From Promethearchaeia archaeon (GTDB taxonomy: Archaea; Asgardarchaeota; Lokiarchaeia; Sigyniarchaeales; SOKP01), in contig JAHQWJ010000120.1 of assembly GCA_029856125.1 (NCBI GenBank), positions 243,170 through 307,169 of the forward strand: a stretch of DNA of 64,000 nt, in the 5' to 3' direction. Made by a program: the position numbers and the translations under genes. Positions 31,652-51,775 of the stretch are shown piece after piece. Each line of letters starts with the position of its first letter. Position 1 is the first letter of the stretch. The notes beneath the pieces are model-generated. The model ran no database searches. It was not told the origin of the DNA and was given only the letters and a program-made list of their open reading frames with translations.

Positions 31652-34618
31652 TTAAAAAGTTTGACGGAATATATCCATTACAGATTGTCTACTTAGTTTG
31701 ATGAGGATTAAATACATCCCCAAAATCCCGAAGAAAATGGATAGGGAGAACACTCTAAACAAGACATCCAAAGGGATTGAGAATACAATAGGCATTTCTG
31801 TCAAAAGTCCTAAATTCGTTTCCATTAAGTAAGCACAAAAGGTACCGATTAAAGTCCCCATCGTTCCGCTACTCAACATAATAATTAAACTTTCAATCAA
31901 GAAGAGATTCCTTACGTTTCTTGTTTTCATACCCATAGACCTTAGAATGCCAATTTCAAATTTTCTCTCCATCATTACTGCGTACATTGTGCTTACTAAA
32001 CCAAAGATTGCTATAACAATTGCAAACCAAAGAACAACTTCCATTAAACTGCTTTGTCGATCAAACATAGATTGCATCATATTTACTTTTGTTATTGCGT
32101 CGTCAAGAAAATAATCTTTCCCTGTAGAAATATCTCGTATCTCATCTTTAGTATCTTCAATTATGGTTTCGGAATCATCTTCAAGCTTAATAAAAGCTTT
32201 ATCAACAATCATTTTTGGGTCCCATTGATTTTTAACATCCATTAACCTCATGTAGTTTTCTAAAGAAACCATAATGCCTCCACCTTCAGCAGAAGCTTCT
32301 GTAGTTCTAAAGTTAAAAAATCCTGGCATTCCTCCGGAAATACCAACAACACGGAATAGAGTAATATTTCCAGGATCGTTCGGAATTTGAGGGTTGAAAA
32401 AAGTTAATCGAATGTATTCACCGACATCATCGATGCCGAAAACAGTCGCAAGAGACTTAGCAATGATGCATGTATTATTTTCGTTAAACAATTGACTAAA
32501 TGAATAATTAAATCCGCTCCGTGGACTGCTCCAAATCATCAAATCATTATCCATTAATTTATAATAATTCCTCTCAATACCAATAAACCCGACCTCTAAA
32601 TTGTCGAAATTTGCTATATCTCCGCCTTTTACTTGATATTTTTCTTCCGCTTGTTCAGTGTAAAATTCAAAGATGTTTATAAAAGCATCATTAATAGAGT
32701 CCTCGTCAAAACCGCCTCCACTCTGGCTAAAGTCGAATAAAATCGATAAAACAGACGTTATATCAAACATGTTATATAATGACATAGCGATTTCATCTAT
32801 TCCATCAATAGTTTTTAGGTCTTCAATCGTATTGAGCGTAATTGCGTTAGTTTCGGGATTTACTCCTTGATTAATTAAAACTAAATCGGATCCATATTGA
32901 AATTTTAAATTAGTTGCCAAGTTCTGCGATTCCATCTCGGAAACGCTAGTGATAAAGAAAATGAAAGAAAAACTTATCGCAAACATCACAATTGTGCTTG
33001 TGTTCCTCCTCCTGTTTCTTTTTAGCGATATTTTAATAATATGAGCATACTTCTTAATGAATGGCGTGAAAGCTCCAATTAATAGGCTTTGTATGATTGG
33101 TATAACCCCTACTGATGCGAAGACCAACCCAATTAATATAGCCGCAATAAGTCCAATAAATAGACCGGCAATCATCATCATATCACCCGACACGAATATG
33201 CTTGGTAACAAGATAAACACTAGCATACCGATAGTAGCAAGTGCTGAGCCCATTAGAAAATTTCTAACATTCATACTTCCCTCTTTCTTTACCTCCCACC
33301 CTTCTTCTTTCTTGTGAAACGGCGTAATTGACTTAATAATATCAATTTTGGCAGTTTTTAAGGCAGGGATTAAAGAAATTACTAAAGAAACTATAGATCC
33401 TATGGAAAATGCTAAAATAACTGTTTGAGGTTGAATAACAAAGTCCATATTCTGTAGGGGAAAGTCTGTCAAAACGAAGAGTGCGCCCACAACTGGCGGT
33501 GTTCCGATAAGACCTACGATTATCCCTATAATAGATCCTACCACTCCAATCATTACACCTTCAAAAACTACCATTTTTACAGGAAACATTTTCTTTCCTC
33601 CTACAACTCTTAAGATTCCATATTCTCTAATTCTTTCTTCTGTAGATGTAGAAAGAATAGAATTTATTAAAATACCTGTAATAAGCATAGAAATAATCGT
33701 AATAAACCAAAAAATAATTGTCATACCCATTAGTAAAAACTGTTGAGCACTTATTTCCTGTAATTTCGGCATTGCTACGGTGTAAGCATTAGGATCTAGT
33801 CTTTGTTGAATTCGCGTACCTATTTCCCTAATTTGTCGTTTAGTGAAATCAATATCGCTAACAACGTAAATTGATTGTGGATTTTTAATGGTGCCCATTA
33901 TTAAGTTAATCTCTCCTTCGCGCTGCATAAATGATTGAGCTTGTTCTAGATTTACGATAATTAATGCGTTTTCTAATTCAGTAAATTTTAAGTCTTGTTC
34001 GCAGATAGCCACAACCTCGACATCTAAAGAATATTGCTGATAATTCATGTGGATTAAATCTCCGATACTCACATTTAGAAGCTCTGCAACTTTCCATAAA
34101 ATAACACATTCTCCCATATTTGGTTCGGCAACATAATTACTTCCCGTTTCAGTACCATTCTGATCTACCAAGTTTAAATATCCCATTTCTCCATTATTAA
34201 CTTCTTTTAAGAAATCGATTCCATAAACTTGTAACGAACCATTCGAATCAGTATTATCAGAAGATACTTTCACAAGCATCATAATTCGTGGAAATAACTC
34301 ATCCACACCCTCAATATCTGATAATTCATTATCTATTAGTGATTCATCAAAAAAAGGATCAAATGTTAAATCTGTATTTACGGCTTTAGATATTAGTATA
34401 TCGGAGCTTCCAGTGGTACTCGTTATAATCCCCATATAATTATAAGACATTGAATCGTTTATCATACCGATTGCGGTGAGAAGAATTATTGAAATTGTAA
34501 TTCCGCTCAACCCAAACAAAACTTTTGCTCGATCTTTTTTTATGTTTAACCAAGATTGTTGTAAAAATTGGATTCTGAGTTTTAACCTTAATTTATATAA
34601 TATATTTTGTATACTCAC
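31652..34618 (-). CDS. MacB/FtsX-type ABC transporter permease (duplicated 4-TM + extracytoplasmic domain)
   Basis: EERIREYGILRVVG and ERKFEIGILRSMG motifs; two large extracellular domains. Confidence 0.9.
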   Translation of the reverse strand: MSIQNILYKLRLKLRIQFLQQSWLNIKKDRAKVLFGLSGITISIILLTAIGMINDSMSYNYMGIITSTTGSSDILISKAVNTDLTFDPFFDESLIDNELSDIEGVDELFPRIMMLVKVSSDNTDSNGSLQVYGIDFLKEVNNGEMGYLNLVDQNGTETGSNYVAEPNMGECVILWKVAELLNVSIGDLIHMNYQQYSLDVEVVAICEQDLKFTELENALIIVNLEQAQSFMQREGEINLIMGTIKNPQSIYVVSDIDFTKRQIREIGTRIQQRLDPNAYTVAMPKLQEISAQQFLLMGMTIIFWFITIISMLITGILINSILSTSTEERIREYGILRVVGGKKMFPVKMVVFEGVMIGVVGSIIGIIVGLIGTPPVVGALFVLTDFPLQNMDFVIQPQTVILAFSIGSIVSLVISLIPALKTAKIDIIKSITPFHKKEEGWEVKKEGSMNVRNFLMGSALATIGMLVFILLPSIFVSGDMMMIAGLFIGLIAAILIGLVFASVGVIPIIQSLLIGAFTPFIKKYAHIIKISLKRNRRRNTSTIVMFAISFSFIFFITSVSEMESQNLATNLKFQYGSDLVLINQGVNPETNAITLNTIEDLKTIDGIDEIAMSLYNMFDITSVLSILFDFSQSGGGFDEDSINDAFINIFEFYTEQAEEKYQVKGGDIANFDNLEVGFIGIERNYYKLMDNDLMIWSSPRSGFNYSFSQLFNENNTCIIAKSLATVFGIDDVGEYIRLTFFNPQIPNDPGNITLFRVVGISGGMPGFFNFRTTEASAEGGGIMVSLENYMRLMDVKNQWDPKMIVDKAFIKLEDDSETIIEDTKDEIRDISTGKDYFLDDAITKVNMMQSMFDRQSSLMEVVLWFAIVIAIFGLVSTMYAVMMERKFEIGILRSMGMKTRNVRNLFLIESLIIMLSSGTMGTLIGTFCAYLMETNLGLLTEMPIVFSIPLDVLFRVFSLSIFFGILGMYLILIKLSRQSVMDIFRQTF

Positions 34619-34648
34619 TTTATCACGCTTTACTTTCGATTGTGTTAA

Positions 34649-37600
34649 TTACCTATCTAAAATACTAAATTTTTTACTTTTATTTTCGAATTTTCTTAGA
34701 AAAATGCCATTTTCTTTTAATGATTCTTTTATTTCTCCAATTTCTCGCCTAACTAATCTAACTCCTCGACATTTTTTGTTTTTACAGTAAAAATTCTCTT
34801 CTGGCTTATCTTTAAAATACCATTTACCGCAATTTATACAGTTATAAGCAACATAAATTTGATCGTGATCGCACTTCGGGCACATATAGTTAAATTGACT
34901 TGATTCAAACCATGATTGACAATACTTGCAGTGGAGAATTAAGGGATTCTTGTATTCTTCTGAAGTTTCTATGATCTCTATTCTCTTAATGACTTGCTCT
35001 TTATCAAGTTCTTTTAACCTTAGTTTCTCCGCAAAGGTATTCCTACGGTGTCTGAAACTAAATTTACCATATTTTTCCGCTAAAACATAGGATATTATGC
35101 CAAGTATGATAACACTTACAATTATTAGCAACCAAATTCCCCACGTTTGAAAATTCATTAACCCATTTTCTACTTCGACGTGAACTACTGATTCAGCTCT
35201 ATTTCCTTCTGCATCGTAAGCAACGACCATTACTATGTATGTCCCATCTAGAAATTGAGAAGTATCCCATTCAATACTTAAAACTCCGGTACCTTGATTG
35301 AAATTAAGCAAACTTCTATCAATCATCTCATCGTTGATATATATATTTATACGAGTATCATCTATTTCAATATTATCGCTGATGTTTGCCTCAATTTTAG
35401 TAATTGAGTTGACAATTTCATCGTTTAGCGGTGTGCTAATTTCGATAGTAGGAGCGATGAAATCTGTGAATTTATCATAACCTAAATAGATATTTGATAT
35501 TAACCATCCATAACCCAAGCCTGTTGTTATGTCATTGGAATGTAAAGTGAATTTGATTAAAACAATTTCATTGGAGTATTGCGAAATATCCAATGATTCG
35601 TTTCCTGCAAGATTTTCAGAATCAAAGTAGTATTCTCTTAAATTATCCCAACTTTCTCCGTAATCACTTGAGATAGAAATTGTACACTTGTCAAGTTCGT
35701 CCTGTTCCAAAAAGAATTCATTCTGTAAAGAAATTTCATACGCAAAATTCAAGAAGACATCGTATTCATCTCTAAGATGTAAAGGATATGTTATTAGACT
35801 AGCTTCCCAATCGGGCTCATATCCTTGCGAGAGACTACCGTAACTTTGGCCTAATCCTCCATATATGAAGGGATTTCCAAAGCGATAATATAGATGCCAA
35901 CTATTATCCCCTTTTAACCATTGCGTTAGCTCTTTTTGCATCGGATTTCCAGTGATATAATAATCCGATAAAGATGTAAGCGTATAATCGAACCCAATTA
36001 ATTTGCCACTTTGATTTACATTAAATTCGTAAGCAATGGGATTTTGAAAATTAAATAAATTATTATCTTGATTAAAATAATTAGTAGAGTTGAAAAACTT
36101 ACCATCGTATACATGAAACCTAAAAGTCAGATTAGTAATATCGTTCAATACGAATGACTTTACAAATTTAATTCCACGAGAGTCAACGGAGCCTAAACTC
36201 GCGTTCCACGCGCCAAATATATTAATCATAGAATAATTCTGATTATTGATTTCAATAAATACATATTCAGGATAATTGTTATCGGAATCGAAGTAATTTA
36301 ACGAAAAAGTGATTCTATCGTATTTAAATCCTTGAATATCGGATATGTTATCGTCTACATTAAAATCTATTTCAGGCGTTTGAAAGTTCGTATAGTTCTC
36401 TAGCGAGAAATAAGCCAACGCAAATCCTTTATAGTTAATAGGATCGAAATCTTCATCTATTACAGCTACAAACCTAAATTGGACAAAATTTCCAATATAT
36501 TGAGTTATATTTATTTCTTCTAAAAACCAGTCCCTTTCTTCACCTGAATAAATTCTTAACGTAATCCAGCCCGTCCAATTAGGATTTATCTGCAAAAACA
36601 TGAAATCACCAGAATTTAAACTCGTTCTTAGCCCTATTTTAGCCAAAACTTGCGTATAGTTTTTATTGATGCTAGTTATATTAAACAAGGGGCTTCTTAA
36701 CGATCCGTTAGGAAAGGGATTTGTTATGATATATGGTTGGTATGTATAGTTTAATGGAAAATCATGGTCTCTACCGAAATACATTGCTGACCAGTTCTCA
36801 GAATATAAAGTGGAACGATTGTCATTCTGATTACTTTGATTTAACATTCCCCAACCTGTTCCATTATATGACCATCCATTAAACCCATCGTTAAAATCGT
36901 GAACATATGGAAATGCCTCGCTATCATCTGGAAATTCGATATTGATACTTAATAACTCTGATAAAGGATATTTTGCATGATGAGATCCATCACTAGCGTT
37001 AAAATAGTAGTAATATTTCCCTGGTTTAGAAAATTTAACAAAATCGCTTCTAAAAACAGCTCCGTTAGTGTAATTGTCATCAAAAGCGAGAATTTGAGTC
37101 ATTGCATACTTTTTTGAAGTATTTACAATATATAAGCATACTTCTTGAGGAGGTATATTTGAGGTATCGTTATCAAAATATTCTATGAAAAACCAATAAT
37201 TATCAATAGTATAATTCTTAGCGGGTTCACTTCCATAAAATTCTTGGAGGCTAATAACTGTATCATTTTTTGCCCCCCCGAAATAATTAATCTCGGTCAT
37301 TTTTAACTCGGGAGCGAAATTATTATTCACGCTAGAAACATTCAAGGTAAAGTTACTTTTTCCTGAAATAGCTTTAACAATTAATATACATTCTGTTTGG
37401 TTATGCTTTGGAGTGAAGTAGAAGAAATCTGAGTCCCCATACCACTTTTGTGCTGCTTGTAATAACAAGGGTTCTCCAAACCGATTTGATTCATTTGCAT
37501 ATAGAAATAAATCTAAATCTGCGTTACCATCCACATTTGATAGATTGAAACTATATTGAGTGTCTTCAAGTAAATGTATTTTTCTTGCAAACACATGATT

Positions 37601-39460
37601 TTCCAAGGGATTTAATTCTGAACTTGTCAATTCGTAATTAATAGGTTCATTTATCTCAATTTCTTTGGTTAAGGCATCAATAGCCGCTTGAGTGTTCAAT
37701 CTTCCGTACCCTTCATGTACATCTTTCAGGTTATTTAATAATCCATTAAAAAGATTTGGTGAGTAATCACTTTCATCTATTTCTGTTTTAGGATCATCCT
37801 CTCTTTCGAGATTTGTTTCTGATGCGGTCATGAGTAATATAGCTTTTAACATTTTTACCCATTTAGTAAGATTCTGGTTATTCCATTCAGTCCAACTCCC
37901 CCATTTCGCATCTATTAATATGTTAATTACTGCAGAAACGATTGCTGTTGATATTGAAGTCCCGATTAAAGCGGTTGTATCATTAGATTTTCCATCTGCA
38001 CTTACAATTGAGCGATGACTTGGTATTGTACTACCTCCTGGCGCAACAATATCAGGTTTCAGAATGTTTTCTCCGACATTTCGTCCCATGCTGCTGTAAG
38101 AAGTTATCATGTCTTCATCGTTGATCGCACCAACAACTATTGCATTTTTATTAATACCTAAACTGTTAAATGGCTTAGCACCTTCGATTCCATTATTCCC
38201 CGCAGCAATAACTACTATAATATGATTTTTAATGACTTGATCAATTACAGCATTAATCGCAGTTACATCTTCTCCTATTGTTCCGATGCTTAAACACACG
38301 GAAATTATTTGATATATTGTTCTGTTTTGGATCACGCTTGCCATTGCCGATATTAAGTCTGATACATACCCTTGCCCTGAACTATTTACGACTCTATAAC
38401 TCAAAATTTTGGTAGCGTTAGCGATTCCATTAAAATGATTATAGTCCTCATAATAAGATTCGGGAAAAAATGACATAGATGAGTTGAAAGAAAAGGCTGG
38501 AGTAGTATTACTTTTTTTATGATATTTAATATAAACATCATAAATTCCTCTTTTATCAGGGGCGACATTGTGTATAATTGAATAGATTTGATTAGGATTT
38601 TGAATGGTACTAGAATTAACCAATGTAGAATTATAAAACAATTCCAGCCAAAAAGTATCTATTTCATTTGTCTGATAATCGAAGCTGGAATTTATTCCAA
38701 TTTTTGTGCTACTTTTTGACATATTTACAGTGAGAATTTTAAAAGTATAATTTTTTGAAGGTAAATAATCCTCAAATAACTCCAAATGTGTGTAATTTCC
38801 ATATAAATTAATAAAAGAAGGGCTGCTAGATTCATTGGTGAGGACGCCAGTACCTGCAATAACAGAGGATATGAAAGTTCCGTGGCCGTTTCTATCAGAG
38901 ATCAAATCGTTATCGACAAAATTCTGCCAACCTACAACTTTATTTTGTAAAAAAGCTTGATTAGGATTAATGCCACTATCTAAAACTGCGATAGAGGAAT
39001 CAGTGTCACCATTATAACCATTATTATACCAAGTGGCATTAACTGATTGTGTTTGAGCGCTAGCATAATTCATCTGAACTTCAATAATTTCATCGGTATC
39101 GATATTAATATCGGGAAATTCATTCTTATATAAAGATAAATTAACTAAAGGGATTGTTCCAGCAAATCCTGAGAAATCATTAAATAACCCATTCCAATCT
39201 TCATGCTCTTTTAAAATACCACCATAAGACACAAATCTAATCTTTGCGCTATTATTATAATTTGTATTATTAAAAAAAACTATTACATTTTTGTTACCAC
39301 TGTTTGATGTGCGTAGTGTATCTGAGAATTCTTTTTGTTTTACGAGTTTCACACCGTTTAAATCTAAAGTTTGAAATTCTAAAAGAAAACTAGTACCGAT
39401 ATTTAATCCGAGGATAAGAAGTAAGATAACAAGATATTTTGATACTTTTTTCATGTTCAA
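34649..39460 (-). CDS. membrane-anchored S8 (subtilisin-like) protease with beta-sandwich/Ig repeats and a cytoplasmic Zn-ribbon tail
   Basis: VLDSG, NGHGT, AAGN, KPDIVAPG, GTSIS; TM near the C-terminus followed by CKYC, CPKC, CINC, CKNKKC. Confidence 0.88.
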   Translation of the reverse strand: MNMKKVSKYLVILLLILGLNIGTSFLLEFQTLDLNGVKLVKQKEFSDTLRTSNSGNKNVIVFFNNTNYNNSAKIRFVSYGGILKEHEDWNGLFNDFSGFAGTIPLVNLSLYKNEFPDINIDTDEIIEVQMNYASAQTQSVNATWYNNGYNGDTDSSIAVLDSGINPNQAFLQNKVVGWQNFVDNDLISDRNGHGTFISSVIAGTGVLTNESSSPSFINLYGNYTHLELFEDYLPSKNYTFKILTVNMSKSSTKIGINSSFDYQTNEIDTFWLELFYNSTLVNSSTIQNPNQIYSIIHNVAPDKRGIYDVYIKYHKKSNTTPAFSFNSSMSFFPESYYEDYNHFNGIANATKILSYRVVNSSGQGYVSDLISAMASVIQNRTIYQIISVCLSIGTIGEDVTAINAVIDQVIKNHIIVVIAAGNNGIEGAKPFNSLGINKNAIVVGAINDEDMITSYSSMGRNVGENILKPDIVAPGGSTIPSHRSIVSADGKSNDTTALIGTSISTAIVSAVINILIDAKWGSWTEWNNQNLTKWVKMLKAILLMTASETNLEREDDPKTEIDESDYSPNLFNGLLNNLKDVHEGYGRLNTQAAIDALTKEIEINEPINYELTSSELNPLENHVFARKIHLLEDTQYSFNLSNVDGNADLDLFLYANESNRFGEPLLLQAAQKWYGDSDFFYFTPKHNQTECILIVKAISGKSNFTLNVSSVNNNFAPELKMTEINYFGGAKNDTVISLQEFYGSEPAKNYTIDNYWFFIEYFDNDTSNIPPQEVCLYIVNTSKKYAMTQILAFDDNYTNGAVFRSDFVKFSKPGKYYYYFNASDGSHHAKYPLSELLSINIEFPDDSEAFPYVHDFNDGFNGWSYNGTGWGMLNQSNQNDNRSTLYSENWSAMYFGRDHDFPLNYTYQPYIITNPFPNGSLRSPLFNITSINKNYTQVLAKIGLRTSLNSGDFMFLQINPNWTGWITLRIYSGEERDWFLEEINITQYIGNFVQFRFVAVIDEDFDPINYKGFALAYFSLENYTNFQTPEIDFNVDDNISDIQGFKYDRITFSLNYFDSDNNYPEYVFIEINNQNYSMINIFGAWNASLGSVDSRGIKFVKSFVLNDITNLTFRFHVYDGKFFNSTNYFNQDNNLFNFQNPIAYEFNVNQSGKLIGFDYTLTSLSDYYITGNPMQKELTQWLKGDNSWHLYYRFGNPFIYGGLGQSYGSLSQGYEPDWEASLITYPLHLRDEYDVFLNFAYEISLQNEFFLEQDELDKCTISISSDYGESWDNLREYYFDSENLAGNESLDISQYSNEIVLIKFTLHSNDITTGLGYGWLISNIYLGYDKFTDFIAPTIEISTPLNDEIVNSITKIEANISDNIEIDDTRINIYINDEMIDRSLLNFNQGTGVLSIEWDTSQFLDGTYIVMVVAYDAEGNRAESVVHVEVENGLMNFQTWGIWLLIIVSVIILGIISYVLAEKYGKFSFRHRRNTFAEKLRLKELDKEQVIKRIEIIETSEEYKNPLILHCKYCQSWFESSQFNYMCPKCDHDQIYVAYNCINCGKWYFKDKPEENFYCKNKKCRGVRLVRREIGEIKESLKENGIFLRKFENKSKKFSILDR

Positions 39461-42400
39461 AATTCCCCTCCATCTTCCGTACTATCCTTAATATAACTCT
39501 GTTCTTTGGAAAGTGAATTAAGGCGGTCTCTTAAGGTATTTTCAACTTTTAGAACCGAGTCATTGCGTGATACTTTAAAAAGCATTAATTCGTTCCTCTG
39601 AAGTTCATACTTACTAGCTTTATATTTCTTAGTTTTCCAAATGAAAATCGTTAAAGTAGTAAACGCCGCTAAGGCCGGACCTAGCACAAACAAAATATTA
39701 ATTTCTTCTGGAATTATAACTTTAATTTCAATAGAATTTGATGTTTCTATTACTTTTTGAAGGTAGAAATATTCAATACTCGCAGGTTTCAGCCTGATTA
39801 AAGCTTGTTTAGTCGCTTGAATTTTATAGGAAAATGTAATTTTCTCATCTGGTTGCAAACTCGTAGCAGTATAAATAAGACTTCCGCTAATTAATTCAAA
39901 TTCAATATTCGTAAAGCCAATAGCGTCGCTAATGGTAATATTTTTCGCACAAATATTCCCGGTGTTAGTAACCGTTATGTTTACCGTAATAATATCCCCA
40001 ATTTCTATTTGATCTCGATTAACTGATTTTAATATTGAAAAATTGATAAAACCAAGAATAAATGACTTTGAAGAAGCAATTTGAATCGTATTTTCCTCTA
40101 AACAACTGAAATAATTAACAGAAGGATAATAGTACCCTTTCCATCCAATTTTTATTAAGGAGATGTTAAAAATTATTAACTCATTATACATAATTTCTGG
40201 CGTAACCAGATTCTTCTTACTATTAGGTACCAAATCTCCGTATTGATCATTAAATGAAAGAGATAAATTTGGAATCACTAATCCAGCAATTCCCGTATTT
40301 TTAATATAAATTGACAAGTTAAATATTTCATCGACACTAGGGGCTAAAGTTGTGGAATTACAATGAATCTCAATCGTTCTAACATAAGGTTTTCGGGATA
40401 AATAATCGATTGGAGCAGAAAAATACACATCATTTGGTTGAGACTCCAGTGTTGTAGAATTTAAATTTTGAATAAAATCTAAATTATTATAACTAATTGT
40501 TGCATTGCTAATTGTAGCTGTATTTGGAACATAAAAAGAAAATGAAATTTGCTTTTTCTCAGATGGAGCAAGATTAAGAATATTGTATTTTAAGTAGTCT
40601 TTTTCGATTGTAAAGTTGAAAGGATTATGCATAATTCCGGGGACCATAATTGATATATTAACGTTTCTTGCGATATTTGACCCTATATTGCTAAAAACTA
40701 ACGTATAGTTATTTATCTCTCTCGTACTTGAACTATAGCTAGATAAATAAGAATATGAGGTAATAGACGCCATATTGTAAGTACTCAAAGAGATTGTATT
40801 TGATTTTTTAATATATTCAACTTTACCACTTAATGAAGTATAAGTAACTCTAGATCCTAAAACTGTATACTCGTTAACATCTCTGTAATAAAATTCTATA
40901 TCCAAATCATTTATCGAAATGTTAAACTTGTCAGAATTGATCCCCTTTATTTTTAAAATAATTGAATGGTTGTTTCTATCTGCAGGATCAAAAATCCATT
41001 CAAAAATCTCTTGGTCTTTAATAAACGTATAAGTCGATGCGTTATTGATTGTGGTAATCAAATACGGTGATATATCTTGAAAAGTTTCTGAAGTATAATT
41101 AAAAACTTCAAAATTCAACACTTCATTAATGTCAGTGTAATTAACAATAATTGAAATACTATCTAAAGAATTGTTTGTTAGGTCTATCGCAGTTTCATTC
41201 TTAAAAAGAAATTGTAATTCAATCTCGTGTTGATCAATATATTTCTGTTCTGATTCGACGATCCAATCTAGGTTATCGTTGTTTAATGCCATTTGAGGAG
41301 AAGTTCCGTCAAGTGAAATCCCAGAAATTATCGAAGGTATCTGCGGAAAATTTTCATTAACAGTAAAATTATATTTGTAAAAAGAAGAAAATGTATCAAA
41401 CCCTTCTATCGAAAAATTGTCGTAGGTATAAGATAATACCTCGTTTGGCTCTAACTTCCAATTCTCACTATTCCAAATACTCCGTTCATTGGTAAAAGTA
41501 TCTTTTAGCGATTCTGAAGATTGACCTATTGCATCTAATGAAGAAATTAATTGTGGGTTACCTATTGCAATTAAATCAATCACATGATCCATATTTTCAT
41601 TATAAGGTAAAAAATTAGTGAGATTGTTAAGATCTGGAAAATAAGTATCTACAGTTCCTGCTCCTGTTGTATCAAAATAAAAAATGTGTGGATTCTTATC
41701 AAAGTTAAAAAAATCCTCCAAAGAAGTGTATTGACCAGCATACTCAATTCTGACAACTTCCCATATAGATTCTTTAAGATCCTCATCAAGACCTAAAAGA
41801 ACTCCGATTGGTCCTATGATTATTGGAAAAATATCATCGAGTTCTATAGGTATTGGAGTAGGAACCCCCCAAGCAGTTTCGTTACCTACATTTGTAGCTG
41901 TAATATTAAATGAAAAGTCTTTAAAGGCTCCATTTGAGGCATTCCCCCCAATTAAGTCTTTTGTAATAAGTAAATTGGGTTCTGAATTTGAAATTTTATA
42001 AGTAATAACTATCTCTTCAATTGGGTTAAAAATTCCGGTAGGTATTCCTGGTAACCCTTGAATTCCGAACTGGTGTAAAAAATTTATGATATCTGCTTGG
42101 TTGTTCAGATTTACGGGTTTAACATAACTTTGCTTAAATCCATTGTCGTTAACCCAAAACAATTCAAACGAATAATCTTTAAGCGCCTGGATATCAAATT
42201 CTATCTCAGCGTAGTATAGTAATAAGCCGATTTGCTCTAATAGAAAGTCATAAAGCGTAAAGTAGGAGGGTGTTGCATCGCTTATATCAGTACAAAAAAT
42301 ATTCACATTAATTTCACTCATAAAAGCGCCTATTAAAGAAATAAATATCTTTTCACTAGGTTTGAGTGATTCTCCTTGATAGCCTAATGCGTCCCATAAA

Positions 42401-43416
42401 TTAAAACGATATTCATCTTCACTGACTTCGGTAATTCCAAGAGCTGAACCTTCATATTGTATCATTAAGCTCGTATAATGTGATTCATTAGAGAGCGTGA
42501 GCGAACTAAACGAATCACCAAAATCGCCAAAATCGTTTTGGGTCGATGTTTGATTGAACACCTCTGAAAAATTTCCAAATAGTGAATCATAGTCAAGGAT
42601 AATATCAGAGAATTGCTCAAATACATTATCTACTTCAAGATTTTCTAAATAACCTAAATCAAGTGAATCAATATTAAAATTTACCTGATCTATGGACTTA
42701 TATATATCATAGTCTAAGAAATCCAAGGAGTTCACTAATAGAAATGTGGAAGATAAATGTTGAGCATTAATATATTCTTCGGAAGTTAAACGTTCCACAT
42801 CTAAGGCTTTCCAATAACCATCCATAGGAAGGTTTTGCGTAATTTCATCAAGATAAATCTCCCAATTTGGATGATCCCCTACAAATGGAAAGAAATACGC
42901 GTTTGAGGTATTTATCGTTATTAAATCTATCTCAAATTTCTTTCTTATAATATCTAGCGCTCGATTTGCTCTAAACAATACGTCTTCTTCGCTCATTTCT
43001 TCATCGTAATAAAGAAATCCCGAAAAACCGTTAAAAGTCGTTTCATATTGCTTACTATAGCGATCTTCATTAATAACGCGAGGGAATAATTCTGGCGTAA
43101 TCCCGTTTGATACGCTGAGAAGCACATTACATTTATAAAACGCGGGATCTCTCGTATCAAACTTAGGAAGAATACTTGTATCGTTAGTGAAAAGCGATTG
43201 TTTAATGACTGATTTATTCCCTGCTACTAAAGCATTAATTTGTTCTGCATACAAATCTGTTCCCGCTATATCAGACATTTCTAGAAATTTTTCTTGAAAA
43301 TCGGATTGTTCCTCGTAATCAACTACAAATTCTTGACTGCCAAAATTGTCATATATTGGGAAAGAAATAAAATTAAGGAAGAATAAAACAGTCAATATTT
43401 CTTTAGAGTATTTCAT
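39457..43416 (-). CDS. large surface (glyco)protein with DUF11/BatD-like Ig domains and a C-terminal TM
   Basis: Signal-like N-terminus; repeated NITATNVG, FSNIGSNIARNV, IKNTG, NITVTNTG; many NxS/T sequons; C-terminal TM + basic tail. Confidence 0.75.
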   Translation of the reverse strand: MKYSKEILTVLFFLNFISFPIYDNFGSQEFVVDYEEQSDFQEKFLEMSDIAGTDLYAEQINALVAGNKSVIKQSLFTNDTSILPKFDTRDPAFYKCNVLLSVSNGITPELFPRVINEDRYSKQYETTFNGFSGFLYYDEEMSEEDVLFRANRALDIIRKKFEIDLITINTSNAYFFPFVGDHPNWEIYLDEITQNLPMDGYWKALDVERLTSEEYINAQHLSSTFLLVNSLDFLDYDIYKSIDQVNFNIDSLDLGYLENLEVDNVFEQFSDIILDYDSLFGNFSEVFNQTSTQNDFGDFGDSFSSLTLSNESHYTSLMIQYEGSALGITEVSEDEYRFNLWDALGYQGESLKPSEKIFISLIGAFMSEINVNIFCTDISDATPSYFTLYDFLLEQIGLLLYYAEIEFDIQALKDYSFELFWVNDNGFKQSYVKPVNLNNQADIINFLHQFGIQGLPGIPTGIFNPIEEIVITYKISNSEPNLLITKDLIGGNASNGAFKDFSFNITATNVGNETAWGVPTPIPIELDDIFPIIIGPIGVLLGLDEDLKESIWEVVRIEYAGQYTSLEDFFNFDKNPHIFYFDTTGAGTVDTYFPDLNNLTNFLPYNENMDHVIDLIAIGNPQLISSLDAIGQSSESLKDTFTNERSIWNSENWKLEPNEVLSYTYDNFSIEGFDTFSSFYKYNFTVNENFPQIPSIISGISLDGTSPQMALNNDNLDWIVESEQKYIDQHEIELQFLFKNETAIDLTNNSLDSISIIVNYTDINEVLNFEVFNYTSETFQDISPYLITTINNASTYTFIKDQEIFEWIFDPADRNNHSIILKIKGINSDKFNISINDLDIEFYYRDVNEYTVLGSRVTYTSLSGKVEYIKKSNTISLSTYNMASITSYSYLSSYSSSTREINNYTLVFSNIGSNIARNVNISIMVPGIMHNPFNFTIEKDYLKYNILNLAPSEKKQISFSFYVPNTATISNATISYNNLDFIQNLNSTTLESQPNDVYFSAPIDYLSRKPYVRTIEIHCNSTTLAPSVDEIFNLSIYIKNTGIAGLVIPNLSLSFNDQYGDLVPNSKKNLVTPEIMYNELIIFNISLIKIGWKGYYYPSVNYFSCLEENTIQIASSKSFILGFINFSILKSVNRDQIEIGDIITVNITVTNTGNICAKNITISDAIGFTNIEFELISGSLIYTATSLQPDEKITFSYKIQATKQALIRLKPASIEYFYLQKVIETSNSIEIKVIIPEEINILFVLGPALAAFTTLTIFIWKTKKYKASKYELQRNELMLFKVSRNDSVLKVENTLRDRLNSLSKEQSYIKDSTEDGGEF

Positions 43417-43432
43417 AATTTTTCATCTCCTC

Positions 43433-46432
43433 CTACATTGTTTCCCTATAAATATCTACAATTTTCTTTTTTCGGGATTTATTCAATAATACTTTCATTC
43501 CAATTAGAGTAAAAATTATCGATATAGCAAAAATTACGAACATATCTGTTAATGGAAAAACAGGGATATTAGGTAAACCGCTAGTTAGATTCATAGACAC
43601 ACTTAGAAGTAAACTAGTAACCCACCCTACGATGACACCTACAGTTCCACTACTTAGCATAATAATTAACGACTCTATAGTAAACATTCTCCCGATTTCT
43701 TTCCCTTTTAACCCTAAAGTTCTAACAATCCCTATTTCTTTTTTTCTTTCAATAATTGTTGAATAAGAAGATGATAGTAATCCAAATAAACAGATGATTA
43801 CTGTCGCATTCAAGGTCATAGAAAAAAACACGGCAATAATTGTGAAAAATAATTCTTGTTCCGTAATCCTTTGTTGTAAACTTATTATCTCAAAATCAAA
43901 AGAGTTCTCATTTTCCCGTTTTAGTTTATTCATGATAAACTGTGATGAACTTTGGGCATTTAGATTGAGTTTAATAAATATCTTGTCTAAGTATGGTATT
44001 GGGGGAATATCCATAATACTCATATAGGTTTCTTGAGAAATCATAACGCCCCCCATATTAGCCGATGCAGCAGATCTCCCAAATTCACCCATAAAGCCTG
44101 GCATGGCTGCTGCGACTCCAACTATTTTAAAAGTATAGATCTCAGACTCGTCCCCCCTCTGTATTACCATCCGAATAATATCTCCGAGAAGCATATCCAT
44201 ACTTAAAGAAATACCTTCTGATATAATACAAGTATAGAAAGTTTGTTCAATAAATAGTTGTTCAAAAGACGATTTGGTTTCTCCCTGTGTAAATTCCATA
44301 TATTCGGTTTTGATCGTAGATAGATATACTTCGTCAACGCCGATAAGACTTATTTCTTGTGTTGTCAAACCAGCGTAATCCCCAATCTCTGCTGTAAATT
44401 CTTTACCTTCTTCAGAATAAATTTGTGTTAACTGGAAAGGGCTGGCGATTACCGAGGAAATCCTCTCGATACCATCGATTTTTAATAATTCATCCTTAAA
44501 ATCGCTTGTGAGGATTCTATTCGGATTTACAGAAAAGTCGCTATCTTGACTTGTTTTAAGACCATCAACAGAAGTGCTAAGAAAATCACCACCCTCACCT
44601 CCAAATAATCCAAAACTCTCGACTTCTTCGGGTTCGAACCACCCTTCTGTTTCTATCACTAAATCTGAGCCTAAATTCAAGTTAGCACTCACTACACTCT
44701 CGTTCGCTAAAAAGCTAAATACGCTCGAAGTAAATATTACAAACGAAAAAGTAAATGCAAAAGTTATTATCGTGCTAGAGTTCCTTCTAACATATCTAAA
44801 TATAAAGATTCTATAGACTGGGGCTAATTTTTTGGTAAATACTGAAAAAAATCTAATAAACATTCTTAAAATTAAAGGCATTAAGGCCAATCCTGCCAAT
44901 GTCATTCCAATCAAAAATATTAATAACAAAGCGATTAAAGTTCCTGACATTAACGCCGCATCTCCAGTAGTTAATATCCTTGGGATAACAAACAATACAA
45001 ACGCTCCATTCGCGGCCAGAATAACACCCACGATTAGAAGCTTATAGTTCACCGAAGCTTTTTTTTTAAGTTTATATAACACATCCTCCTTACGATAAGG
45101 ATGGATAGATTCTATTAATTGGAGCTTCATAACTTTAATAGCAGGTGAGATACTAACAATAAGCCCTACACTTAATCCAATGATATAAGCAATTAAAAAC
45201 GACCAAATAGTAGACGAGAACGTTATATTTCCCGCTAGACCCGGTATCGATTCCGCTACAACAGCACCTGCTATCGGAAGTACGAGATATTGTGTTAGAA
45301 GTTGGGCTAGTATCATGCCTAATATCGTTCCAAAATTACATAACAACAATCCTTGTACTAAAACGATTATTAAACTGTAACGCTTGGTTGCTCCCAGCGT
45401 TCTAAAGATCCCAAACTCTCTTATACGTTCCTCAACAGATGTTTTTAGAATCCCATTAATTAAAACACCAGAAATTAGCATAGAGATCATAGTTACGAAT
45501 ACAAAAATTATCGTCAACCCGACGCTAAACATTTCAGAATAACCTAGAATGTCTAACTTTGGTAAACCTATATTATATTCGTTTAATCCGATTAAAATCT
45601 GAACTTTTCCCGCTAATTTTTTGACTCGATCTTCTGTACCGTCGATATCCCTTGCATCATATAAAAGTTCATCCCCTTTTAATGTTAAAATTAATTCGTT
45701 ACATTTTCCATTGAATGTCGTGTTACCAAAGGTATCGTAAATGGTATTAATATCAACGACAATCAAGGGTCGGTTTGTATATGTTATAGGCCATTTCAAT
45801 TGAAAATCAAAAATGCGATTTATGGTAAAATTTTTTACTCTATAATAGTAAGTATCTCCGTGCCATAATCCCATTCTAATTTCAATTGTGTCGTTCTCAG
45901 CATATTTAATTTCCTCGTTTAACCCGTAATATATAGCACATTGATTCAAAGCTAAATTAGAAATCTCTAACAATTCGTTAGTATCTGGCTTTAAAAAACT
46001 CCCAAATTGAAGTTGGTTTTCTAATTCAAAATCTATCCCCGAGATAATAACGCTACTCCTACTGTTTGCTAATTCTTGGGTTTCATAACCCTTAGAATCG
46101 TTAACATTTCCCCATAAACTCATTCTAGGAATAAAGGATTCAACTTCGTCGATATCACTATGGATCGTTTCTATTATGGGCTGATAACTGAAATAATTCG
46201 ACCGATTATCGGGCTCGCCATTATAATGTCTTACGGAAACATTAAAATCTTGTTGGCCTGCATCGATACTAAGATAATCAATGAAAGTAACTGCTATAGA
46301 ATCTGATAAAAATAGAATTAGCGCTAGAAGTCCAATAGAAATTGTAATTCCTAATACCCCAATAAAGGTCCTGGTCTTGTGACGGACGAAATCTTTTAAG
46401 GCGTATTTAAATACTATTTTTATGTTAGTCAT
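43433..46432 (-). CDS. MacB/FtsX-type ABC transporter permease, paralog of 31652..34618
   Basis: EERIREFGIFRTLG and ERKKEIGIVRTLG motifs. Confidence 0.9.
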   Translation of the reverse strand: MTNIKIVFKYALKDFVRHKTRTFIGVLGITISIGLLALILFLSDSIAVTFIDYLSIDAGQQDFNVSVRHYNGEPDNRSNYFSYQPIIETIHSDIDEVESFIPRMSLWGNVNDSKGYETQELANSRSSVIISGIDFELENQLQFGSFLKPDTNELLEISNLALNQCAIYYGLNEEIKYAENDTIEIRMGLWHGDTYYYRVKNFTINRIFDFQLKWPITYTNRPLIVVDINTIYDTFGNTTFNGKCNELILTLKGDELLYDARDIDGTEDRVKKLAGKVQILIGLNEYNIGLPKLDILGYSEMFSVGLTIIFVFVTMISMLISGVLINGILKTSVEERIREFGIFRTLGATKRYSLIIVLVQGLLLCNFGTILGMILAQLLTQYLVLPIAGAVVAESIPGLAGNITFSSTIWSFLIAYIIGLSVGLIVSISPAIKVMKLQLIESIHPYRKEDVLYKLKKKASVNYKLLIVGVILAANGAFVLFVIPRILTTGDAALMSGTLIALLLIFLIGMTLAGLALMPLILRMFIRFFSVFTKKLAPVYRIFIFRYVRRNSSTIITFAFTFSFVIFTSSVFSFLANESVVSANLNLGSDLVIETEGWFEPEEVESFGLFGGEGGDFLSTSVDGLKTSQDSDFSVNPNRILTSDFKDELLKIDGIERISSVIASPFQLTQIYSEEGKEFTAEIGDYAGLTTQEISLIGVDEVYLSTIKTEYMEFTQGETKSSFEQLFIEQTFYTCIISEGISLSMDMLLGDIIRMVIQRGDESEIYTFKIVGVAAAMPGFMGEFGRSAASANMGGVMISQETYMSIMDIPPIPYLDKIFIKLNLNAQSSSQFIMNKLKRENENSFDFEIISLQQRITEQELFFTIIAVFFSMTLNATVIICLFGLLSSSYSTIIERKKEIGIVRTLGLKGKEIGRMFTIESLIIMLSSGTVGVIVGWVTSLLLSVSMNLTSGLPNIPVFPLTDMFVIFAISIIFTLIGMKVLLNKSRKKKIVDIYRETM

Positions 46433-46474
46433 TCTAATTAAAACGTACTTTTATAATAAAATAGATGAATTATT

Positions 46475-47653
46475 TCAATCTAAAATCAATTCTTCTCCCG
46501 AAATTTGCCCCTTAATATTATTTTCTTCTATAAGTTCATCCAAAATATCGTTAAAATGTTCTGGGAGGTTTGAAACGATCGGAATTGGGACACTATTTTT
46601 AATATCACTAACTTTGATATTGGTTTTACCTTGATTCGTATATAAAAATTTAAATATTAAACTCTTACATTTTTCCTTATTAATTTCAGCGTCCTGTTTC
46701 CTTCGTAACTGCATAATATCTGTTTCTTTTAGACCTCCAATTTTCCCCTCGTGAGTTAATTTTCCATCTCTCATGTGATACACTTTCGTAGCGAATTCTG
46801 ATACCGCAGCATCGTGAGATACAGATATAAATGTTGCTCCTTTTTTGTTTAAATCTCTAATAAGGTTCAAAATCATAATTCCGGTCTTGGAGTCTAAGTC
46901 ACCAGTTGGTTCGTCGAGAATTACTATGGCTGGATCGTTAGCAAATGCTCTTGCAATTGCAACTCTTTGTTGTTCCCCACCGCTTAATTCTGATGGTGTA
47001 TGGTGAGAACGCTCATCCAACCCTACCAGACTCAGTAAATCCATTGCTTTTTTTCTCTTACCTCTTTTACTTAACTTTCCAGAAAAATGTAAAGGGACCA
47101 TTACATTTTCTAAAGCTGTCATTTGCGGTAGTAAGTTATAAAATTGAAATACAAAGCCAATTCTTTCTCTTCTTATTTCTGCTAAGTTGTTGTCATTAAG
47201 CATGGAAATATTACGCCCTTCTAAGAAAATTTTTCCTCTCGTAGGAGTATCCAATCCACCTACTAGGTTTAAAAGTGTTGTTTTGCCACTTCCTGAAGGA
47301 CCCATTATATCTATAAAATTACCTTTATCAATCGCTAAATCAACGCCGCGCAGAGCCGCTACCGCCGTGGTTCCAAGTAAATATGTTTTGTGTAGGTTCT
47401 CAACAACAATTAAATGCTCATAATCTTTTCCAACTTCTTTTTCTTGTTTTATTTCGAATTTGATTTTCTTTCTTTCTTCACGAGAGAGGGTAAGTGATTC
47501 CAATTTCTGCTGTTTTAATGTATTTTTTTGTTTTTTAATTTGCCATTTTCGAAATTCTTTGCTTTCTTTTCCCTTCCATATCGCAAGTTTTCCAGTTTCG
47601 TTTTCGTATTCATCCATTTCCTCAGTTTTTTTAATAATTCTTCTTTCAGACAT
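46475..47653 (-). CDS. ABC ATPase (LolD/MacB family) with N- and C-terminal extensions
   Basis: GPSGSGKT, IGFVFQFYNL, LSGGEQQRVAIARA, ILDEPTG, SHD. Confidence 0.95.
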   Translation of the reverse strand: MSERRIIKKTEEMDEYENETGKLAIWKGKESKEFRKWQIKKQKNTLKQQKLESLTLSREERKKIKFEIKQEKEVGKDYEHLIVVENLHKTYLLGTTAVAALRGVDLAIDKGNFIDIMGPSGSGKTTLLNLVGGLDTPTRGKIFLEGRNISMLNDNNLAEIRRERIGFVFQFYNLLPQMTALENVMVPLHFSGKLSKRGKRKKAMDLLSLVGLDERSHHTPSELSGGEQQRVAIARAFANDPAIVILDEPTGDLDSKTGIMILNLIRDLNKKGATFISVSHDAAVSEFATKVYHMRDGKLTHEGKIGGLKETDIMQLRRKQDAEINKEKCKSLIFKFLYTNQGKTNIKVSDIKNSVPIPIVSNLPEHFNDILDELIEENNIKGQISGEELILD

Positions 47654-47828
47654 TAAGTTTAACCCTTTTTTGAGTATAGAAATATAAATTGTAGAACAAA
47701 TACTAAGATAATCATTACTGCAATAGGTTTAGAAGTATTAGGAATGTTTTAAACATTAAGATTCTAATATATTCGAACATCCAATAAAAATTTTTTTAGA
47801 TATAAAACGATTGAAATAGGAGTGAAAT

Positions 47829-50211: not shown

Positions 50212-50928
50212 TTATCTTAATTTTTGTAAATCTATTGGGTTCCCTTCTAAACAAAGTGTACTTATTTTTTTTAAGTTGTCTAAATCCTTTATTTGAATTA
50301 TTTTATTGTGCGTACAACCAAAAAAATATAATTTTGAAAGATTTGCTAACCCCTCAATTTCGCATATATCATTATAACTCAAATCTAAATCTTCTAAATT
50401 ACCTAAGTGTTGGAGATTAGTTATAGCAGAAATTTTGTTTTTTATTAGATTTAAACTCCTTAAATTTATAAGGGAATCAAGCCCATTAATCTCAGAAATC
50501 AGATTATCACATAAACACAAATATTTTAATTTTTTTAATTTGTCTAAATTTTTAATTCTAGAAATTTTATTTTTTTTTAACCAAAGTTCTTCGAGGTTTT
50601 GAAGCGCACTTAAGCCTTTGAGTTCAGATATTAGGTTCTTTTTCAGCCATAATACCCTTAAGTTTTCTAGATTATCAAGGCCCTTTATTTCAGTAATCTG
50701 ATTATTATTTAAACACAAAATCTCTAATTTTTTAAGTTTATCTAAGCCATTAATTTGAGATATCTGGTTGTTAGATAAATCTAAAATGTGCAAGTTGGAT
50801 AATTTCTCGAGGCCTTGTATCTTTTCAATATCCTTTATGCCTTTATTGGATAAGTTTAAGGCGTGATTTTCTATATTAAATTTTTGTCCATCATATTGGA
50901 CAAAATTTTGACTTTGTTGAAAATGCAT
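50212..50928 (-). CDS. leucine-rich repeat protein (SDS22-like, 22-aa repeats)
   Basis: About 9 LxxLxLxxNxIxxIxGLxxL repeats. Confidence 0.93.
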   Translation of the reverse strand: MHFQQSQNFVQYDGQKFNIENHALNLSNKGIKDIEKIQGLEKLSNLHILDLSNNQISQINGLDKLKKLEILCLNNNQITEIKGLDNLENLRVLWLKKNLISELKGLSALQNLEELWLKKNKISRIKNLDKLKKLKYLCLCDNLISEINGLDSLINLRSLNLIKNKISAITNLQHLGNLEDLDLSYNDICEIEGLANLSKLYFFGCTHNKIIQIKDLDNLKKISTLCLEGNPIDLQKLR

Positions 50929-51043: not shown

Positions 51044-51775
51044 ATGAATGCGATTAACAAGATTATCATCATGGGTCATCGAGGCGCTAGTAAAATAGCC
51101 CCCGAGAATACATTAAAAGCATTTAAAGAAGCAATTCGCTTAAAAGCAGACGCAGTCGAATTTGATGTCCAAGAAACAGTCGATGGTGAAATTGTTATCA
51201 TCCATGATTACGATACCCTTAGAACCGCTGGAACTGAAGGTACTGTAGAACAAATGACCCTTAAAAAATTAAAAAAATTGAATTTTGGAAATGGTGAACA
51301 AATTCCAACACTTTTGGAATTAATTGAGTTAGCAAAAGATAAAATATCTCTTAATTGCGAAATTAAAGTAGAAGGTATCGCTAAAAAAATAATTCACATT
51401 TTCCAAGATGCTGACATTCTTGATTCTACGATAGTTAGTTCATTTTTACATGAAGAATTGATTAAGATACAAAAAATTGAACCACAATTAAAATTAGCAA
51501 CCCTTGTCCCTACTGAAGCAGGAAAATTCTCAGATTGGAATTATAAGAAGAAATTAATTGATTTTACATCTGAGAATAATTACTATGCAATTAATCCGTT
51601 ATATAAACTAGCTGATAAACAATTTATCGAATATGCCCATGAAAAAAACATAAAAGTTTTTCCGTGGACTGTTGATTCTGGAATTGCTATGAAGAAATTA
51701 ATAAATATGGGCACAGATGGGATTATAACCAATGACATTACTCGTCTTAAAGAAGTTTTGAACCGTAATGACTAA
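51044..51775 (+). CDS. glycerophosphodiester phosphodiesterase
   Basis: GHRGAS...PENT, EFDV, HD, EIK, WTVD, DGIITN. Confidence 0.93.
   Translation: MNAINKIIIMGHRGASKIAPENTLKAFKEAIRLKADAVEFDVQETVDGEIVIIHDYDTLRTAGTEGTVEQMTLKKLKKLNFGNGEQIPTLLELIELAKDKISLNCEIKVEGIAKKIIHIFQDADILDSTIVSSFLHEELIKIQKIEPQLKLATLVPTEAGKFSDWNYKKKLIDFTSENNYYAINPLYKLADKQFIEYAHEKNIKVFPWTVDSGIAMKKLINMGTDGIITNDITRLKEVLNRND

Follow-up and report, generated by a model that had tools for sequence, protein, structure and literature searches.

A conserved operon of Sigyniarchaeales encodes a type VII ABC system together with a predicted PIG-T-like surface protein and a membrane-anchored subtilase

The permease YbbP of Escherichia coli binds two copies of YbbA and one hydrolase, TesA. 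It has 10 transmembrane (TM) helices, with ectodomains between TM1 and TM2 and between TM7 and TM8 (PMC12646458). FtsEX systems are known to activate extracytoplasmic hydrolases. In the glycosylphosphatidylinositol (GPI) transamidase, the type I protein PIG-T acts as a scaffold: its first luminal lobe, a ten-strand "half-rib cage", holds the TM-anchored protease PIG-K (PMC9098846). Cryo-tomography of a cultured Lokiarchaeon showed a single membrane coated with complex unidentified surface proteins and no S-layer (PMC9834061). In this study, we analyzed a stretch of 64,000 nt, hereafter the window, from a Promethearchaeia archaeon (contig JAHQWJ010000120.1, assembly GCA_029856125.1; order Sigyniarchaeales, Lokiarchaeia). 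The source genome comprises 3.69 Mb in 153 contigs, with 99% completeness and 6% contamination. The Asgard phylum is now named Promethearchaeota. The minus strand of the window holds five open reading frames (ORFs) in series, spanning 31652-47653, for an ATP-binding cassette (ABC) ATPase (P0001), permease A, the surface protein P0003, the subtilase P0004, and permease B. Such an operon suggests a so far undescribed machine at the surface of archaea closely related to eukaryotes.

The intergenic gaps, read 5' to 3' along the operon, are 42, 16, -4, and 30 nt. The -4 overlap depends on a TTG start of the protease gene; an ATG two codons later changes it to a gap of +2. A first-pass annotation of the window had described five co-directional, tightly packed genes, and its coordinates and gaps were reproduced exactly. 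The identities that it had assigned (ATPase, two permeases, DUF11-like TM protein, and S8 protease) are backed by Pfam and NCBIfam matches. No adaptor, chaperone or kinase gene was found among the ORFs of the operon by Pfam scan and neighbor check.

The distribution of the operon was surveyed in 400 sampled genomes of the phylum, among which families f1-f4 belong to the order of the window. Full-length relatives of P0003 were found in 102/134 genomes of f1, 1/1 of f2, 13/14 of f3, and 4/4 of f4. Beyond the order, P0003 was matched in this sample only through its DUF11-like domain. The complete five-gene order was present in 15 of 20 loci taken from other genomes of the order, one of which has permease A split in two ORFs. 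The rest comprise one locus cut by a contig end, with consistent order, one disrupted locus (L038), and three f4 loci with no protease gene. A second set held 56 loci, and 32 of these have at least 4.4 kb upstream and at least 8 kb downstream of P0003. The order 1-2-3-4-5 was found in 31 of the 32 well-flanked loci, with gene 4 split in one. The single exception, L106 of Ca. Sigynarchaeum springense, has the order 1-2-3-5, the protease gene being gone. Nothing was out of order in the remaining 24 loci, whose flanks are short. Median gaps in the well-flanked loci are 48, 15, -4, and 32 nt, and orthologue identities across the conserved loci go down to 27-30%. There is dependence between the sets of 20 and 32 loci, and genomes that are related do not count as independent samples. 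The five-gene co-occurrence is far beyond chance. Conservation of gene order had been set beforehand as the test on which the coupling of these genes could fail, and the order holds in both sets. At the disrupted locus (G189:C1:1575000-1594000), which lies in a single-contig genome, the operon ends within P0003 at 965 aa and is followed by unrelated genes on the opposite strand.

Two variants of the module have no protease gene. Family f4 (L041) has genes for the ATPase, permease A, a P0003-like protein, and permease B. Genome G138 has, besides its five-gene operon, a second, paralogous module that is about 24% identical (L114:6915-16791, minus strand). It contains genes for a permease A-like protein, an ATPase, a 1059-aa P0003 paralogue with a TRAP_beta match, and a permease B-like protein, in a gene order other than that of the operon. 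A PKD-domain protein comes after the permease B-like gene, and there is no S8 gene in this module. P0003 is thus the constant partner of the ABC genes. Because f4 and the paralogous module lack the protease but keep the rest, we infer that the core consists of the ABC system and the PIGT-like protein, with the protease as a lineage-specific add-on. Short paralogues of P0003 (P0045, P0048, P0064, P0070, P0073, and others) occur in public data, one of them from a high-GC organism.

The module is missing from some genomes. In genus g6, 0/4 genomes contained P0003. Three g6 genomes (98-100% complete) were tested for the product of the fifth gene, P0005, which gave only partial matches at 25-27% identity. 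Two g11 genomes from the same family lack the module as well. A profile of the P0003 head gave nothing at an expectation value (E) of 1 or below in these three g6 and two g11 genomes. As a positive control, the same profile recovered the f3 and f4 orthologues and the paralogue in 4/5 control genomes. This envelope operon is particular to a single order of Lokiarchaeia.

Among NCBIfam models, the ATPase matched LolD, DarD, MacB, and FtsE best, all under the equivalog cut-offs (LolD TIGR02211, 240 bits). Its best solved relatives are MJ0796, LolD, BceA, MacB, YtrE, YbbA (E 9.7e-46), and FtsE. Residues 1-80 form a Lys/Glu-rich N-terminal extension. In an alignment of 56 ATPases, the C-terminal extension has a mean identity to the residues of the window of 0.47-0.71 per 20-residue block. 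The ATPase of the paralogous module is alignable up to residue 391, that is, through this extension, and the f4 ATPase also carries it, in a form longer than that of the window. Our guess is that the C-terminal extension adopts a winged-helix fold. The idea that it covaries with the protease was dropped, since f4 and the paralogous module keep the extension with no protease.

The FtsX model (PF02687, cut-off 25.5 bits) matched each permease in two stretches, with 79.1 bits for permease A and 100.6 bits for permease B. MacB_PCD matched permease A with 39.3 bits (cut-off 27) and again in the second ectodomain (E 8.6e-5). By hydropathy, each permease is predicted to have 10 TM helices (TM1, TM2-4, TM5-6, TM7, and TM8-10). 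An ectodomain of about 250-290 residues follows TM1, and another follows TM7. Those of permease A lie at about residues 43-300 and 573-862; those of permease B match them in size and position by hydropathy and gave no Pfam match. Permease B is about 29% identical to permease A, and the solved relatives of its FtsX domains are MacB, LolF, LolC, and YtrF. The assignment to type VII ABC systems, proposed in the first-pass annotation, is backed by the FtsX domains, the LolD/MacB/FtsE-class ATPase, and the solved relatives. The transporter had also been called heterodimeric; this did not hold, as each permease already has both halves (two FtsX domains, 10 predicted TM helices, and two ectodomains). 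A LolC/LolE-style pair of 4-TM half-permeases was ruled out likewise, both halves being present in each chain and the relatives outside the order occurring singly.

The nearest permeases beyond the order (22-25% identity; six loci in four genomes) are single and adjoin an ATPase gene of their own. Given the YbbP topology and these singly paired relatives, each permease should by itself make up a full transporter, served by two ATPase copies. A tree of 29 rows was computed in a quick maximum-likelihood run, with branch support by the Shimodaira-Hasegawa-like approximate likelihood ratio test (SH-aLRT); the careful search was unfinished, and the rows of the paralogous module sit on long branches. 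All module permeases form one clade (SH-aLRT 100), within which an A clade (99) stands apart from a B group (93), the latter with permease B of the window. Since the f4 row is represented in each of the two groups, and so is one permease from the paralogous module, the A/B duplication is old, and both types have been retained in every module variant.

By hydropathy, P0003 starts with a signal-like segment and ends with one TM helix and a cytoplasmic tail; it contains 32 N-X-S/T sequons. A juxtamembrane motif of the tail is conserved, including in f4, and R1274 is invariant in 18 sequences. In public data the relatives are named "hypothetical protein", "DUF7507 domain-containing", or "uncharacterized repeat protein". 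The sole profile match is a DUF11/CARDB/TRAP_beta domain covering only 8% of the protein: residues 1127-1233 matched TRAP_beta with 46 bits (cut-off 22.4), DUF11 with 32.9 (24.6), DUF7507 with 31.3 (27), and BatD with 26.3 (24.1). Pfam searches with fragments of residues 28-1130 gave no match. A profile search against 1.84 billion representatives returned 4119 proteins at E <= 0.001. Among the 150 matches listed, about 25 align nearly end to end; many others are fragments or proteins of 1030-1250 aa with the head and the C-terminal domain, and giant proteins among them align only to Ig-like repeats. A TRAP_beta match above the cut-off, directly followed by a TM helix, was observed both in P0003 (39718-40038) and in its paralogue (L114:9734-12913, minus strand). 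The eukaryotic translocon-associated protein beta likewise has an Ig-like luminal domain and, after it, a TM helix.

An AlphaFold2 model of P0003 residues 45-1240, built with 62 sequences, had a predicted local distance difference test (pLDDT) score of 86.7 and a predicted TM-score (pTM) of 0.78. With the whole ectodomain model, Foldseek found generic Ig-like domain arrays only (TM-score under 0.15). The likeness to PIG-T was seen only with VIA-align and with the isolated head, for which the top four Foldseek matches are PIGT chains (E 5e-9 to 2e-6). The predicted structure shares with PIG-T the fold of the "half-rib-cage" lobe and the type I topology with a C-terminal TM helix. The head is followed by beta-sandwich domains, the TRAP-beta-like domain, the TM helix, and the conserved cytoplasmic motif. 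The earlier description of a giant Ig-like surface protein therefore stands for the C-terminal half of P0003 and fails for the N-terminal half, with its predicted PIG-T-like head. The hidden Markov model of Gpi16 (PF04113) had no match at E <= 10 in the genome or in the 62 family members, and the P0003 family profile found no PIGT chain in the PDB at E <= 10. In the ESM Atlas, P0003 reached 0.75 to Ig-like clusters, below the level taken as a lead.

P0004 has an N-terminal signal-like segment, a C-terminal TM helix, and 49 sequons. Its nearest solved relatives, 9ues_B (E 4.9e-26) and 3afg_A (E 5.6e-26), are both named "Subtilisin-like serine protease". The triad D161/H193/S502 and the oxyanion residue N422 are present in order. 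About 130 residues are inserted between the His and the oxyanion Asn, and in this S8 insert a sub-threshold OST48_MD match (E 0.0069) was observed. Within residues 600-1440, Pfam found only Big_7 and a weak Reelin_subrepeat-B; residues 600-1441 reached 0.78 in the ESM Atlas, again short of a lead. The cytoplasmic tail has eight Cys in four pairs (a double zinc ribbon), invariant in 43/43 orthologues, with weak matches to DZR, Zn_ribbon_6, and HypA. Asp, His, and Asn of the active site are kept in 41/43 orthologues and Ser in 43/43. In the proteases of L097 and L098, G, L, and D replace the Asp, the His, and the oxyanion Asn; these proteins are full length and keep their place in the operon. 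Genomes with no module have S8 paralogues that are 29-36% identical to P0004 over roughly residues 50-715. Those of g6, L129:7711-11313 (plus strand, G159) and L130:7654-11271 (plus strand, G158), are about 1200 aa long, have a Loki-CTERM end, and have no ABC neighbors; the f4 S8 paralogue (L131) ends differently from these two. The TM helix with the zinc ribbon, missing in the free-standing L129 and L130, is a feature of the operon copy. Since the protease is absent in f4 and the paralogous module and dead in two orthologues, proteolysis cannot be the core activity of the module. The protease-centered machine of the first-pass annotation could not be upheld, with the protease gene missing in f4, the paralogous module, and L106, and Asp and His lost in 2/43 orthologues.

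The explanation that we prefer, and hold tentatively, is that the operon encodes one membrane machine built on type VII ABC mechanotransmission. Two ATPase copies would power each permease, as in YbbA2:YbbP1, and ATP-driven movements of the ectodomains would act on or through the PIGT-like scaffold. The scaffold would keep the subtilase at a set height over the membrane, like PIG-T with PIG-K. The machine would extract or present membrane-embedded or membrane-anchored substrates for cleavage, with the extract-and-hydrolyse logic of YbbAP-TesA rather than solute export. In its favor are the conserved gene order, the core that is kept in divergent variants, the YbbP-like topology and the singly occurring relatives of the permeases, the predicted PIG-T fold, the triad and the zinc-ribbon tail of the protease, and the conservation of the P0003 tail motif and the ATPase C-terminal extension. 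Several points weigh against this explanation. The two surface proteins are tied to the ABC genes by synteny alone. The PIG-T likeness comes from predicted structures only, with all Gpi16 sequence searches negative, and a common fold is no proof of a common function. Family f4 and the paralogous module have no protease, and that of L097 and L098 is dead. The module is also dispensable, being absent from g6 genomes of 98-100% completeness and from two g11 genomes.

The ABC system might instead exist to switch the subtilase by an ATP-driven conformational change, as FtsEX does with its hydrolases, P0003 being substrate or adaptor. The type VII class of the system and the place of the protease gene, which is tightly coupled to P0003 and lies between both permease genes in 31/32 loci, fit such gating. 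Nevertheless we consider it unlikely. The ABC genes and P0003 persist protease-free in f4 and the paralogous module, two orthologues are full length with a dead triad, the permeases have the predicted 10-TM topology of YbbP and not the 4 TM helices of FtsX, and no coiled-coil adaptor of the EnvC/PcsB type was seen in a Pfam scan of the window.

It is equally improbable, in our judgment, that the genes are only co-regulated and their products physically separate, with two YbbP/BceB-like transporters that export or extract a lipid or peptide and surface proteins that merely share the transcript. Synteny alone joins the proteins, related ATPase-permease pairs stand alone in other Asgard lineages, and P0004-like proteases are free-standing elsewhere, all of which would agree with separate functions. 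However, a P0003-like gene stays between the A- and B-type permease genes at 27% identity, in f4, and in the paralogue of about 24% identity. The gaps are of a few nt or are overlaps, and both surface proteins have conserved cytoplasmic elements.

A cell-envelope proteinase that serves nutrition may be paired with a helper protein, as lactocepin PrtP is with PrtM. By analogy, P0004 could be the main extracellular protease of a peptide fermenter and P0003 its maturation or anchoring helper. P0004 is large and anchored, its catalytic domain carries an insert, and its C-terminal extension is long; the surface proteins of this genome include some binding proteins of the oligopeptide type. We regard this explanation as quite unlikely, because type VII ABC systems are established not to be importers, the gene is kept in two lineages despite the loss of the triad, the module persists with no protease, and close relatives live with no module.

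A further step from the preferred machine would be to take P0003 as a true archaeal PIG-T homologue and the module as a prokaryotic counterpart or forerunner of the GPI transamidase. In that case the scaffold would hold the tethered endopeptidase beside the lipid-handling type VII permeases, and the complex would cut C-terminal anchors off a subset of surface proteins, followed by lipid transfer or release. We consider this very doubtful. At E <= 0.01, PF01650, PF06728, and PF10510 (PIG-K, PIG-U, and PIG-S) had no match in the genome; the PIG-U and PIG-S searches are weak, since the control genomes likewise gave nothing. The Gaa1 model (PF04114) had one sub-threshold match of 16 bits elsewhere in the genome.

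C-terminal sorting signals were surveyed in the same genome. A TM helix with a basic tail ends 145 ORFs, and in 14 of these the motif I/V-P-G-F/Y/M stands directly before the TM helix. Twelve of the 14 match the Loki-CTERM model of NCBIfam (NF033507) at E <= 1, five of them above the cut-off. Among the 14 are binding proteins, beta-helix proteins, an M1 peptidase, and proteins with a beta-lactamase fold. No protein of this genome reached the PGF-CTERM model TIGR04126. NF033507 is absent from the NCBIfam matches of P0003 and P0004, both of which have long tails (60 and 143 residues). No exosortase/archaeosortase (PF09721) was found in this genome. PF09721 is nearly missing from the order, with matches in 3/134 genomes of f1 and 0/19 of f2-f4. 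In family f13 it matched in 20/31. The three f1 matches are doubtful, one containing stops, one being a fragment of 65 aa, and one having 536 aa. As the exosortase is absent while the signal is present, Loki-CTERM is an orphan signal here. The signal was found in 4/4 g6 genomes (8-14 matches each), 10/10 g11 genomes, and 19/19 f19 genomes (3-13 each), and in f4 also. It is equally frequent where the module is missing; therefore the module is not a general Loki-CTERM enzyme, and its candidacy as a general Loki-CTERM sortase was mostly rejected. A narrower substrate set may still apply, as may homology of the scaffold to PIG-T. Least probable of all is a GPI-transamidase-like sorting machine, in which scaffold, protease, and permeases cleave Loki-CTERM signals and re-anchor or release the proteins in place of the missing archaeosortase: the predicted PIG-T fold of P0003 and the Loki-CTERM-type ends in a genome with no PF09721 speak for it, but the signal is as abundant in the module-less g6, g11, and f19 genomes, f4 has the signal and no operon protease, the protease belongs to S8 and not C13, and of the transamidase subunits PIG-K, PIG-U, and PIG-S were not found and Gaa1 only below threshold.

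The coordinates are listed in Table 1. The 175-nt AT-rich region 5' of the ATPase gene is likely to be the promoter region of the operon. The flanks hold unrelated housekeeping genes, with RNase III upstream and Ham1 and the ribosomal proteins S15 and S3Ae downstream. An Rfam scan of the window found no RNA family. Four runs carry a metatranscriptomic label and a "probably DNA" flag; all that they yielded across the stretch were scattered contigs, short and of low depth.

Table 1. Positions of the operon features in the window and of related features at other loci (prefixed by locus or genome and contig).
Feature	Position	Strand	Basis
Candidate promoter region, AT-rich	47654..47828	-	175 nt between ATPase gene and RNase III gene; sole sizeable gap
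ABC ATPase (P0001), 392 aa, LolD/MacB/FtsE class	46475..47653	-	ABC_tran E 1.8e-35
ATPase C-terminal extension, residues 300-392, beyond the ABC fold	46478..46756	-	conservation
Permease A, 999 aa, duplicated type VII permease	43433..46432	-	FtsX x2 and MacB_PCD, hydropathy
P0003, 1319-aa predicted type I membrane glycoprotein	39457..43416	-	hydropathy, sequons, family profile
P0003 PIG-T-like N-terminal domain, residues 52-476	41989..43263	-	predicted structure
P0003 membrane-proximal DUF11/CARDB/TRAP-beta-like beta-sandwich, residues 1127-1233	39718..40038	-	Pfam
P0003 TM helix (residues 1241-1259) and 60-residue cytoplasmic tail	39460..39696	-	hydropathy, alignment
P0004, 1603-aa type I membrane-anchored subtilase	34649..39460	-	Peptidase_S8 E 5.5e-34, two stretches
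P0004 S8 catalytic region, about residues 140-560	37781..39043	-	catalytic residues located
P0004 TM helix (residues 1442-1460) and 143-residue cytoplasmic tail	34652..35137	-	hydropathy, Cys positions
Permease B, 988 aa, duplicated type VII permease	31652..34618	-	FtsX x2, E 7.6e-29
Dead-triad protease gene	L097 12699-17105		alignment of 43 orthologues
Dead-triad protease gene	L098 12674-17092		alignment of 43 orthologues
Loki-CTERM-type ORFs, examples of at least 14 (L115-L128), outside the window	G000:C72:435-3140; C18:177524-179941; C84:112608-114974; C126:113440-115716

Other genes of the window were recorded on the way. Just upstream of the operon region are a gene for a 238-aa leucine-rich-repeat protein (50212-50928, minus strand) and two adjoining glycerophosphodiester phosphodiesterase genes (51044-51775 and 51919-52548, both plus strand). 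Two large WD40 proteins are encoded at 7665-9668 (plus strand, 667 aa) and 9838-15339 (minus strand, 1833 aa). The larger one also bears TPR repeats, and its gene coincides with a GC-richer stretch (GC 0.36-0.43, against about 0.31 elsewhere in the window). A 1037-aa protein with a prenyltransferase alpha-alpha toroid domain (16513-19626, minus strand) has an apparent C-terminal TM anchor and a 47-residue tail, the listing row having been paired with it by length and contig. The gene beside it encodes a 1117-aa protein with no Pfam match (19801-23154, plus strand).

No description of the module, of an archaeal PIG-T relative, or of Loki-CTERM was found in open-licence papers and preprints, in agreement with the first-pass annotation, which knew of no account of the module. 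The operon names a conserved, large, putatively glycosylated, and ATP-powered candidate for part of the Lokiarchaeal surface. Closed genomes of the order carry it, and the idea is therefore testable. If the proposed machine exists, the operon would extend to archaea the type VII ABC mechanotransmission that has hitherto been a theme in bacteria. Of greatest weight is the predicted PIG-T fold, since PIG-T, like other scaffolds of the ER lumen, has no prokaryotic relative recognised in the literature searched; an Asgard relative, if true, would bear on the origin of the eukaryotic GPI-anchoring machinery.

The module shares parts with several known systems. Membrane-anchored subtilases occur in other machines, such as the mycosin MycP of ESX systems, and as cell-envelope proteinases. 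Like these, P0004 has an S8 domain with a C-terminal TM anchor, and its match to the mycosin model TIGR03921 is sub-threshold (64.8 bits, cut-off 278.75). Unlike mycosins, P0004 is far larger, has a cytoplasmic double zinc ribbon, and is encoded in an ABC operon, not in a type VII secretion locus. A structural role of P0004 without catalysis is possible, as the orthologues with a dead triad illustrate.

With LolCDE, MacB, and BceAB, the module has in common the FtsX-type TM domains, a MacB_PCD-type ectodomain in permease A, and a LolD-like ATPase, and it may follow their logic of pulling lipidated or lipid substrates from the outer leaflet. Identity between the Loki permeases and solved type VII permeases is detectable in the FtsX domains only. 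LolC/LolE and MacB differ in being half-permeases of 4 TM helices, and BceB in having a single ectodomain and a kinase to which it signals; no kinase gene is present in the Loki operon. FtsEX is likewise a type VII ABC system that works outside the membrane on a hydrolase (with EnvC, PcsB, or RipC) and does not move a solute, and FtsE is a solved relative of P0001. FtsX, however, has 4 TM helices and one ectodomain and forms a homodimer, and its partners are coiled-coil activators of peptidoglycan hydrolases; the Loki module has neither.

The GPI transamidase also combines a type I scaffold bearing a C-terminal TM helix with a TM-anchored endopeptidase beside it and polytopic partners that handle lipid. 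The Loki module differs from it in that P0003 has no Gpi16 sequence match and is 2.5 times longer, the protease is of S8 and not C13, PIG-K, PIG-U, and PIG-S were not found in the genome, and the polytopic partners are ATP-driven ABC permeases. YbbAP-TesA resembles the module in its duplicated 10-TM permease with large ectodomains (by predicted topology for the Loki proteins), its LolD/MacB-class ATPase, and the gene of an extracytoplasmic hydrolase beside the ABC genes. In contrast to that system, the Loki module has two paralogous permeases and one ATPase gene, its hydrolase is a 1603-aa TM-anchored S8 protease where TesA is a small soluble SGNH esterase, a PIGT-like scaffold is its constant partner, and the host archaeon is single-membraned. 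An architecture in which two duplicated permeases are joined by a giant scaffold and by a TM-anchored protease that bears a zinc ribbon on the cytoplasmic side is new.

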